Shown here in pieces: positions 2,004-3,539 of a DNA stretch of 64,000 nucleotides (positions are counted from its first letter, which is position 1; every line of letters starts with the position of its first letter). The position numbers and the translations under genes are program-made. This DNA comes from Bdellovibrionota bacterium (GTDB taxonomy: Bacteria; Bdellovibrionota_C; UBA2361; CAKMMH01). The DNA lies in contig JBMNLI010000012.1 in assembly GCA_050952645.1 (NCBI GenBank), positions 64,001 to 128,000 of the forward strand, read 5' to 3'. The notes beneath the pieces are model-generated. The model was not told the origin of the DNA. It worked only from the letters and a program-made list of their open reading frames with translations, and made no database searches.

Positions 2004-2036
2004 TTAAGTTTTTTTTCGTATTTATCGATACATAAT
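2004..2036 (+). promoter_or_regulatory. putative promoter of the intergenic RNA (sigma28-like TTAA-N16-ATCGATAC; overlapping sigma70-like -10 CATAAT)
   Basis: Motif resemblance to TAAA-N15/16-GCCGATAA; both readings place a start near 2038-2043, where the structured region begins. Confidence 0.45.
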
Positions 2037-2041
2037 TTACA

Positions 2042-2540
2042 GGGTGGATGTTAGGTTATGTTTAGAACGGTTAGTAAGTTTAGGTGAGTGTAATCCTAGA
2101 AAAAGCTTATAGTTCTAAAATGTCAGAGTGTTAATACATTCTATTGTTTGGTTATGGGTACTCTAAACAAGACTCGTAGCGAATAGAAAAAAAGTTTAAT
2201 GCTTTGAAGCCTTGCGATTTATTTATGCAGCGGTTAAGGAGCATTTACTTGGTGTGGTAAGTGTCCATGCTTTTAGTAGAGTTTCTTTTACGTTATATAA
2301 AGATATTATATAAAGATATTATATAAAGATAATGTCGGCAAGGTCGTGGCTTAAAATATAAAAATATTTTTTTTAGGTTTTTAAAAAGGTTAAAATCTTT
2401 TTTTAAATTTAGAGTAACATTCATGTTATTTAAATGTGTAATAACGAAAGTTATATGCGTTTTTAACATAAAATCCTGTATTTGCGAGTGGGGGCAGCAG
2501 GCTATTTTTTAAAAAGAAAAATACTTGTTGCCCTTTTTTT
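2042..2540 (+). ncRNA. putative large structured non-coding RNA, family not recognised
   Basis: Closing helix TTATGTT (2056-2062)/AACATAA (2465-2471) plus flanks, at least six internal hairpins with G-U pairs on the + strand, a GAAA tetraloop, a terminator, and no ORF in the track. Confidence 0.65.
2490..2540 (+). terminator. intrinsic terminator
   Basis: GGGCAGCAGG...CTTGTTGCCC stem followed by a T7 run. Confidence 0.75.
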
Positions 2541-2852: not shown

Positions 2853-3539
2853 GTGTCTGATTTTGTTATACAATTAAAAGATAGATCTCAGTTTGGTTCT
2901 TCAAATGCTAATCGTTATAGGAGAGAAGATTTAATACCAGTTTGTGTTTCTTTTAAAGGTGAAGAAAGTGCTTTAGCAGTGGTTGCTTATAATGAGTTTT
3001 TTCATATGGCAGAGAGAGCAAAGACTTCTCAAGTTTTTACTTTTAAGAGTGATAATAAGAGATTAAATGGCGTTAAAGCGATAGTTAAAAATATACAAAA
3101 AGAATATTTAAAAGATAAAGTTCTTCACGTCGATTTTCAAGCTTTAAAGCCAGGGGAGCACGTTACGGTAAAAGTTCCTTTACAAATCGTTGGAGTAGCA
3201 CAAGGAGTAAAAGTCCAAGGTGGAATTTTAACCCCAGGGGCTAGAGAGGTAAAGCTACGTGTTTTAGATGAAGCTATCCCAGAAATTTTAGATGTTGATG
3301 TAAGCGCTCTTCGTATAGGCGAGACTATATTAGCAAGCGATCTTAAGCTACCAGAAGGGGCAACGCTACTTAGTAGCCCAAGAGAGGCATTAGCAGGCGT
3401 AATCGAAAGCCGTGCTAGTAGACTTGCTGAAATAGCAGCTTCAACGGCTGCTAAGGGGCAGAAAGCTACGACAAAGGATAAAGCGGCAACTGCACCAGCA
3501 GCAGCAGCAACTAAGCCTGCAACGAAGAAAGATAAATAA
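2853..3539 (+). CDS. rplY: 50S ribosomal protein L25 / general stress protein Ctc
   Basis: VLHVDFQ, VKVPL..VG.A.GVK.QGG.L, IPE.LDVDVSAL.IG motifs; probable start GTG 2853 after GGAG; precedes pth. Confidence 0.92.
   Translation: MSDFVIQLKDRSQFGSSNANRYRREDLIPVCVSFKGEESALAVVAYNEFFHMAERAKTSQVFTFKSDNKRLNGVKAIVKNIQKEYLKDKVLHVDFQALKPGEHVTVKVPLQIVGVAQGVKVQGGILTPGAREVKLRVLDEAIPEILDVDVSALRIGETILASDLKLPEGATLLSSPREALAGVIESRASRLAEIAASTAAKGQKATTKDKAATAPAAAATKPATKKDK

Follow-up and report, generated by a model that had tools for sequence, protein, structure and literature searches.

A candidate free-standing structured RNA gene with a FliA-type promoter motif in two uncultured Bdellovibrionota species

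The DNA analyzed here is a stretch of 64,000 nucleotides (nt), referred to below as the window (contig positions C12:64001-128000), from a Bdellovibrionota bacterium with a genome of 1.95 Mb and 31% G+C. Between the genes tlyA and rplY of this window, and on the same strand as both, lies a region that probably contains a real RNA gene. We lean towards the reading that it encodes a free-standing structured noncoding RNA (ncRNA) of ~500 nt with a FliA-type promoter motif and its own terminator. The RNA is predicted at positions 2039-2540 of the + strand on the basis of its folding strength, a homologue in a congeneric species and the lack of a match in Rfam, and we regard it as a well-founded candidate from two uncultured species.

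Promoter motif, terminator and predicted fold

The candidate is a discrete + strand unit, bounded by a promoter-like motif and a terminator that belong to it, as had been proposed in a first-pass annotation of the sequence. The motif, TTAAG-N16-TCGATA, is of the sigma28 (FliA) type and occupies 2004-2030 of the + strand (TTAAG at 2004-2008 and TCGATA at 2025-2030), and both its bases and its spacing are identical in the congener. In Bdellovibrio bacteriovorus, the consensus TTAAG-N16-CCGATA was derived from 140 attack-phase promoters and assigned to FliA, and it is carried by three of the eight attack-phase small RNAs (sRNAs) of that species (Karunker et al., 2013, PMC3627812; cited here and below from excerpts of the article). 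Ten of the 11 specified bases of the FliA consensus, which is that of B. bacteriovorus (TAAAGTTT-N11-GCCGATAA type), are matched at the candidate, at the right distance from the predicted start. The exact sequence TTAAG-N16-CCGATA is found upstream of motA in the host genome (Pfam MotA_N, 3e-21), where the site is also kept in the congener, and before a STAS-domain gene beside the flagellin cluster; near-variants occur at two flagellin genes. FliA itself is present in the host (246 bits), together with five or six flagellin genes. The earlier suggestion of sigma28-driven transcription gains support from the fit to the FliA consensus, from the motA promoters of both species and from the presence of FliA and flagellin genes, and transcription is probably sigma28-driven. 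We infer that 2004-2030 functions as the promoter and that the RNA starts at A2039, which lies 8 nt past TCGATA and is the first base of the predicted helix P1.

At the other end, an intrinsic terminator on the + strand (2490-2540) consists of a 12-bp G+C-rich stem and an inner A/U stem followed by a U7 tract, and it is conserved in the congener. The hairpin at 2490-2535 has a folding energy of -23.1 kcal/mol (z -4.4) with U7 at 2534-2540, and its counterpart in the congener reaches -17.8 kcal/mol, again followed by U7. Two changes from G-U to A-U distinguish the two terminators, and these fit the + strand only. A simple terminator scan missed the hairpin because its loop is long. The 3' end of the RNA is predicted to fall within the U-tract 2534-2540.

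The tlyA-rplY gap (1877-2852) is unusually long and holds only open reading frames (ORFs) of 30-58 amino acids (aa), three of which (58, 33 and 30 aa) gave no Pfam match at E<=1, in agreement with the earlier description of the region as ORF-free; none of the gap ORFs is kept in the congener save a 22-codon GTG frame. The minimum free energy (MFE) of 2040-2540 on the + strand is -141.5 kcal/mol, with a z-score of -7.69, and none of 100 dinucleotide shuffles folded as well, so that the fold came through the comparison with shuffled controls that had been proposed for it. The minus strand of the same segment has a z-score of -2.58. This strand difference arises because 40 of the 184 MFE pairs are G-U, in line with the earlier remark that mismatches in the stems are mostly G-U on the + strand. 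Among 20 random 500-nt windows of the host genome scored in the same way, z had a mean of +0.30, a standard deviation (sd) of 0.98 and a minimum of -1.44, placing the candidate more than 6 sd away from the genomic background. With values of -6.36 for the host RNase P RNA and -3.76 for the host transfer-messenger RNA (tmRNA), the candidate is at least as structured as RNase P RNA by fold z-score. Sub-pieces of the RNA score far more weakly (z only -1.6, -3.6 and -2.3), and therefore long-range pairs carry much of the fold signal.

In the MFE structure, which we call the spine model, an invariant 5' block (ACAGGGTGGATGnnAGGTTATGTTTAG, 2039-2065, matching the congener at 25 of 27 nt) pairs successively with four distant segments, the first 30 nt being matched to 2473-2479, 2415-2422, 2345-2351 and 2112-2119. 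The resulting helices, all on the + strand like the other elements described here, are P1 (2039-2045/2473-2479), P1b (2046-2053/2415-2422, in which CATTC is conserved in the congener), P2 (2054-2060/2345-2351, with the 3' arm CGTGGCT here and CATAGCT in the congener) and the stem-loop P3 with its inner hairpin (2061-2068/2112-2119, whose outer six pairs are formable in the congener). They enclose nested domains, namely the stem-loop P4 (2139-2145/2182-2188), P5 (2209-2215/2338-2344), the two-tier hairpin P6/P6a (2371-2414, with the conserved core AAAAAGGTTAAAA.CTTTTTT) and a GAAA-capped hairpin. A junction block, TGCTTTGAAGCCTTG (2200-2214), is identical to the congener at 13 of 15 positions and supplies the 5' arm of P5 with its 3' part. 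The P5 domain is expanded in this species, being ~85 nt shorter in the congener, and it contains a species-specific tandem repeat of 13 nt in 3.0 copies at 100% identity (2293-2331). This repeat had been noted before and is real, but it is partly paired in the MFE structure rather than lying largely within a loop. The 3' closing region AACATAA..ATCCTGT..TTTGC (2465-2485) is conserved and pairs with the 5' end in either closing model, the spine or an alternative 5'-3' rod.

The individual stems listed in the first-pass annotation are complementary as written, except that CCATGCTT/AGGTCGTGG needs a bulge, and about half of them are part of the MFE structure. Those recovered are TTTAGAAC/GTTCTAAA with the inner TAGG/CCTA, TTCTAT/ATAGAA, TTTAGGTTT/AAATTTAGA with its inner hairpin, and the GAAA-capped hairpin; those outside it are TTGTTTGG/CTAAACAA, AATGCTT/GAGCATT, CCATGCTT/AGGTCGTGG and GTAACA/TGTTAT. 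The closing helix proposed there for the multi-branch junction is formable with all pairs canonical, but it is absent from the MFE structure and costs +13.0 kcal/mol in this species.

The congener copy and the extent of conservation

In the comparisons below, G001 is the congener, with the RNA at locus L002, and G002 and G003 belong to the same family but to another genus. A BLAST search of 41 related genomes found real similarity only in G001, at the promoter and 5' end (64 nt, 89%, E 3e-17) and at the terminator, the short matches in G002 and G003 being A/T-rich low-complexity sequence. With up to three mismatches allowed, the 5' motif was found in two of 91 genomes of the order and two of 124 of the phylum, the host included in each count; it is absent from the other 122 phylum genomes searched. 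The motif had no match in metagenome contigs, searched with a 21-base version, or in viral contigs, and only the congener matched among the public genome contigs searched for homologues. Used as bait against metagenome contigs, TlyA retrieved four loci, one from the congener's species on a contig that ends before the RNA and three that are distant. The tlyA loci of G002 and G003 hold no such RNA, and promoter-pattern matches in G001-G003 revealed no second RNA. The homologue search proposed earlier was accordingly productive in that the cassette is kept in the congener, and it stopped at this one homologue within the same genus.

The congener copy would be 399 nt long (L002 1538-1936). Sensitive blastn aligned the blocks 1958-2065, 2200-2214, 2379-2403 and 2512-2545, all on one strand of L002, and placed the rplY-proximal blocks on the opposite strand. 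The gene order in G001 is rplY(-), an ORF of 162 aa(-), the RNA(+) and tlyA(-), so that the cassette is flipped relative to both neighbors, which argues that it is an independent unit rather than an untranslated region (UTR) or leader belonging to either gene. The two TlyA proteins share 68% identity, and at conserved four-fold codons of tlyA the third positions are identical in 35 of 83 cases, compared with ~32% by chance. As synonymous sites are near saturation, neutral DNA should not align between the two species, and the conserved blocks are therefore under selection. Conserved in the congener are the promoter, the 27 nt at the start of the RNA, a handful of short blocks and the terminator. 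The interior has drifted apart, and MAFFT alignments of it are unreliable. A mobile element was considered and set aside: the cassette is present in a single copy per genome, and the flanking inverted repeats are AT-rich low-complexity sequence.

The helices of the spine model were mapped by hand onto the congener. Among 72 mapped pairs in 10 helices, 51 are unchanged, 13 show one-side changes, five show double changes and three are broken in the congener; 69 of the 72 are canonical there, as against 31-39 when the 3' partner is slid by 1-3 positions. Of the two variable bases in the 5' block, one is matched in P1b by a double change from U-A to G-C, and the other belongs to a pair that is broken. 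P4 forms an 11-bp helix in the congener with a base-pair probability of 0.996 and shows one double change from U-A to G-C and one change from A-U to G-U. Both G-to-A changes in the 3' arm of P2 lie opposite U, and P6/P6a alone folds to the same shape in both species. P1, 6 bp of P1b, P6a and the terminator also emerged from a profile alignment blind to the helices. Strain variation was drawn from contigs of eight DNA runs, each single-nucleotide polymorphism (SNP) being seen in one or two contigs at a depth of 2-4: five SNPs fall within the RNA, and all four at paired positions keep the pair, the fifth being unpaired. No joints were found in the contigs of these runs, and there is therefore no sign of an invertible switch.

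Several results weigh against the favored reading. With regard to the promoter, the N16 spacing is not enriched genome-wide (14 matches, compared with 4-19 at other spacings), the count of FliA motifs in G001-G003 equals that of a reversed-pattern control, and a weak sigma70 -10 element (CATAAT / AGTAAT) overlaps the region just 5' of the start. With regard to the fold, the congener RNA has z-scores of -2.7 (+) and -2.4 (-). Imposed on G001, the spine model lies +21.7 kcal/mol above that sequence's own MFE, and P1b, P2, P3, P5 and P8 have base-pair probabilities of ~0. The MFE structure of G001 is instead the 5'-3' rod, which includes the closing helix of the first-pass annotation and is exclusive of the spine; this rod, at +13.0 kcal/mol in the present species, displays two 'compensatory' double changes of its own. 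Because the rival rod also 'covaries', and because ~45% of arbitrary pairings are canonical in a composition so rich in U, G and A, hand-picked covariation carries little weight. For helices with both arms in sequence-aligned blocks, changed pairs are kept in only seven of nine cases, and with two species covariation has low power. A covariance model built from the single sequence of this species' 3' domain (2366-2486) scored the congener at 15.2 bits (E 1.1) and found nothing else in 91 genomes of the order. The SNP result is likewise weak, because a random transition would leave the pair intact at 224 of 368 paired positions (61%). The sequencing runs that hold this stretch are DNA runs from anaerobic digesters, bioreactors and landfill, with no RNA run among them, and the expression, ends and strand of the RNA are predictions. 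Finally, the proposed scaffold mechanism is argued from architecture. Our conclusion from these results is that this species' RNA folds strongly and that the two species plausibly have several helices in common; the evidence for a conserved secondary structure is suggestive.

Proposed mechanism and alternative explanations

Under the favored reading, the FliA holoenzyme would transcribe the candidate RNA alongside the motility genes, as far as the intrinsic terminator of the unit. The first 30 nt of the RNA would then be buried in helices with downstream segments, joining the 5' and 3' ends, and such paired ends could make the RNA long-lived and allow it to serve as a folded scaffold for the binding or titration of a protein or small ligand in the motile phase (the 'attack' phase in predatory relatives). 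A scaffold is proposed because both closing models bury the 5' end and set it beside the 3' end, and because we found no conserved trans target; the mechanism is tentative, and we would sooner doubt than assert it.

A trans-acting regulatory RNA that uses its 5' 27 nt as a seed for base pairing with mRNAs is an unlikely alternative, although the pattern of conservation, with promoter, 5' end and terminator kept and the interior diverged, is what such an RNA would show. Many enterobacterial sRNAs have conserved 5' ends and terminators. The 5' 30 nt of the candidate do not fold in isolation (-1.1 kcal/mol, z +0.2), as would suit a seed, but intramolecular pairs take up the whole 5' block in the MFE structure of each species. 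Moreover, no genomic site of at least 13 nt is complementary to this block, and matches of 11-12 nt occur at chance level. When the conserved blocks were compared with 1773 translation-start windows, the best duplex joined the 3' end of smpB and the adjoining spacer (G000:C7:55614-55661, L055 1614-1661) to 2179-2216, with 15 contiguous pairs and -35.2 kcal/mol. The duplex is not kept in G001 (-18.5 kcal/mol, compared with a null of -13.7 +/- 2.7), and by our own estimate it is probably at chance level when G-U pairs are allowed. Base-pairing sRNAs dependent on sigma28 do exist in Escherichia coli and Campylobacter (PMC10578931, PMC11187230, both cited here and below from excerpts), but a length of 400-500 nt is far greater than that of seed-pairing sRNAs.

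We also see a small chance that the region is non-functional AT-rich intergenic DNA, in which promoter- and terminator-like pieces would be kept as remnants of a lost gene or as insulators for the neighboring genes and the strong fold would be peculiar to one species. The modest fold of the congener, alike on both strands (z -2.7), would agree with this, as would a fold that is not clearly conserved, a 13-nt triplication that is young and species-specific, and expression that is a prediction. Such an account has difficulty with the 64-nt block that survives at 89% where synonymous sites are near saturation, with a cassette that stayed whole through an inversion, and with a z-score of -7.7, more than 6 sd off the background and markedly different between strands. 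In addition, the changes from G-U to A-U in the terminator and P2 fit an RNA of the + strand.

A more specific form of the scaffold proposal, which we consider speculative and rather improbable, is that the candidate represents a new, motility-timed class of large scaffold RNA that would lock its 5' end into long-range helices and sequester a global factor, either the RNA polymerase holoenzyme (no 6S RNA having been detected) or a second messenger, as has been suggested for merRNA, with the spine and the rod as its switch states.

The 22-codon GTG frame at 2045 raises the question of an mRNA or dual-function RNA for a tiny protein (VDVRLCLERLVSLGECNPRKSL in one species and VDGRLCLACGTKVDMKDYPRAR in the other), which we regard as quite improbable. 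Both the start position and the length of 22 codons are shared by the two species; however, the frame begins 6 nt from the predicted 5' end without a Shine-Dalgarno sequence, and the peptides are unrelated past residue 7 save for a shifted Pro-Arg. The 27 conserved nt are kept at all codon positions, with both changes non-synonymous, and we estimate at ~0.15 the chance that a frame stays open in both species over 13 more AT-rich codons. Least probable of all is a role in cis, as leader or attenuator for the rplY-pth operon or as 3' UTR of tlyA, since despite the co-oriented position between tlyA and rplY in this genome the cassette of the congener points away from rplY with the 162-aa ORF intervening and converges on tlyA, rplY has conserved upstream blocks of its own (2633-2696, 2706-2741 and 2829-2852), and the terminator is a strong one (-23.1 kcal/mol).

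Relation to described RNAs and neighboring sequence

The region 1800-2950 was searched with the 4227 covariance models of Rfam 15 at E<=10. Neither copy of the candidate matched any family at this threshold except for spurious hits far below the gathering score, which were mir-297 (on a CATA repeat), the plastid psbA 3' UTR (on the terminator) and the Enterococcus sRNA_1300 (16 bits); in the window as a whole, nothing reached the gathering score except a distant tRNA. The families singled out for this check in the first-pass annotation (OLE, ROOL, GOLLD, raiA, c-di-GMP-I and 6S) gave no match at E<=10, and its statement that the locus is neither RNase P RNA nor tmRNA holds, both lying elsewhere in the host genome (RNase P RNA at C7:130421-130922, 214 bits; tmRNA on C17, found by ARAGORN). 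The cyclic di-GMP (c-di-GMP-I) aptamer (RF01051) was found neither in 1800-2950, as had been anticipated, nor in the host genome, where the controls of the genome search were silent too. No 6S RNA (RF00013) was detected in the region, in the host genome or in 61 genomes of the order, a set that includes 39 with a completeness of 90% or more; the 6S RNA of this order is either too divergent for the model or missing, and with none found in 61 genomes its absence says nothing specific about the candidate locus.

A 6S-type rod, ~180 nt long with a large central bubble, was considered and rejected on the shape of the two RNAs, which at 500 and 399 nt are multi-branched in both MFE and centroid structures. 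A CsrA sponge of the CsrB/RsmY type was rejected on motif counts, with two GGA motifs here (6.5 expected) and five in the congener (5.9 expected). The motif [AU]AGG[UC] occurs eight times in the congener (1.8 expected) and five times here (2.2 expected), the latter being borderline (P 0.056). The host does possess a csrA gene (C17:256521-256673); it belongs to a flagellar late-gene cluster (G000:C17:254086-261457) that also includes a STAS-domain gene and two tandem flagellin genes.

The closest described parallels, as far as excerpts of PMC3627812 allow a comparison of descriptions, are APsRNA3, APsRNA6 and APsRNA7 of B. bacteriovorus, which are 128, 655 and 275 nt long and have FliA promoters. 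Like the candidate, these are intergenic, lineage-restricted RNAs of the same broad bacterial group, predicted to be structured, with a FliA motif and no assigned function; they differ in being supported by RNA-seq and mapped start sites, whereas the candidate is known from sequence. According to the same source, the merRNA of B. bacteriovorus is a massively expressed RNA of 445 nt that carries a c-di-GMP-I riboswitch and for which a role as reservoir or sponge, rather than as cis regulator, was suggested. The candidate resembles it in size, in being free-standing without a downstream ORF and in being lineage-restricted, but it differs in that no c-di-GMP-I aptamer was found in it at E<=10. 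The parallel with a FliA-linked merRNA drawn in the first-pass annotation is thus reduced to an analogy, given the missing aptamer and given that merRNA is not flagged as FliA-driven in Table 2 of the excerpted PMC3627812.

Other comparisons are looser. The sigma28-dependent sRNAs of E. coli include UhpU, MotR, FliX and FlgO. Sigma28-dependent sRNAs of E. coli and Campylobacter jejuni are timed with motility (PMC10578931, PMC11187230); those RNAs are short, mostly UTR-derived and seed-pairing, whereas the candidate is ~500 nt long and free-standing with a 5' end predicted to be buried. With 6S RNA and Ms1, which are stable RNAs with paired 5' and 3' ends made when growth stops, the candidate shares the predicted pairing of its ends, but it is 2-3 times too long for 6S RNA and its predicted fold is multi-branched. 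The Ms1 RNA of mycobacteria binds RNA polymerase, as 6S RNA does. As far as Rfam models can detect, the 6S role is vacant in the genome studied here. The candidate is also reminiscent of OLE, ROOL, GOLLD, raiA and HEARO, which are unusually large and highly structured RNAs whose function is unknown or was found only recently; however, these occur in many species with strong covariation, whereas the candidate has two members and matches none of them at E<=10. Judging from titles and abstracts, full-text searches on merRNA, on sigma28-dependent small RNAs and on ncRNAs of Bdellovibrionota turned up no such RNA for this lineage. The candidate is likely a new genus-restricted RNA of a sigma28-timed, orphan and structured kind that falls outside every described family.

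To our knowledge, strongly structured bacterial ncRNAs longer than ~400 nt are rare. The large bacterial ncRNAs that have been studied are mostly ribozymes or parts of large ribonucleoproteins. In predatory Bdellovibrio, FliA drives most of the attack-phase program together with several abundant orphan RNAs, for none of which is a mechanism known. If the present prediction is true, a second, unrelated lineage would have a large FliA-type RNA, which would suggest that such RNAs are a recurrent part of how members of this group change between motility and growth. The natural variants, 399 and 500 nt long, would give structure probing and pull-downs a compact object.

The genes around the candidate were assigned by Pfam. 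Upstream lie LptE (498-1088) and tlyA, encoding an S4+FtsJ methyltransferase of the TlyA type (1127-1876); downstream lie rplY, encoding ribosomal protein L25/TL5 (2853-3539, with a true start at GTG 2853), and pth, encoding peptidyl-tRNA hydrolase, its neighbor in the rplY-pth operon. Between tlyA and the promoter of the RNA there is a 12-nt tandem repeat, TTTCTTATAATA, in 3.1 copies at 96% (1921-1957), which is absent in the congener.

In the congener, a near-perfect palindrome of ~125 nt with a G+C-rich centre (L002 2150-2290) lies between the terminator of the RNA and the tlyA 3' end and looks like a hairpin element of the miniature inverted-repeat transposable element (MITE) type, and the 162-aa ORF (L002 851-1339, minus strand) has a higher G+C content than its surroundings and no Pfam family and was probably acquired. 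In G002, a G+C-rich stretch of ~180 nt with hairpins (L004 500-680) lies between tlyA and a gene for a sigma factor of the extracytoplasmic function (ECF) type; no Rfam family matched this stretch at E<=0.1.

Upstream of rplY in the window, three blocks are kept with the congener on the rplY strand, namely 2633-2696 (64 nt, 78%), 2706-2741 (36 nt, 81%) and 2829-2852 (24 nt, 100%), and these probably represent the promoter, leader and ribosome-binding region of rplY, the most distal block being situated 160-220 nt 5' of the rplY start. A perfect (CATA)6 microsatellite, the source of the weak mir-297 match in Rfam, occupies 2801-2824, ~30 nt 5' of the L25 start codon, and its length could vary by slippage.

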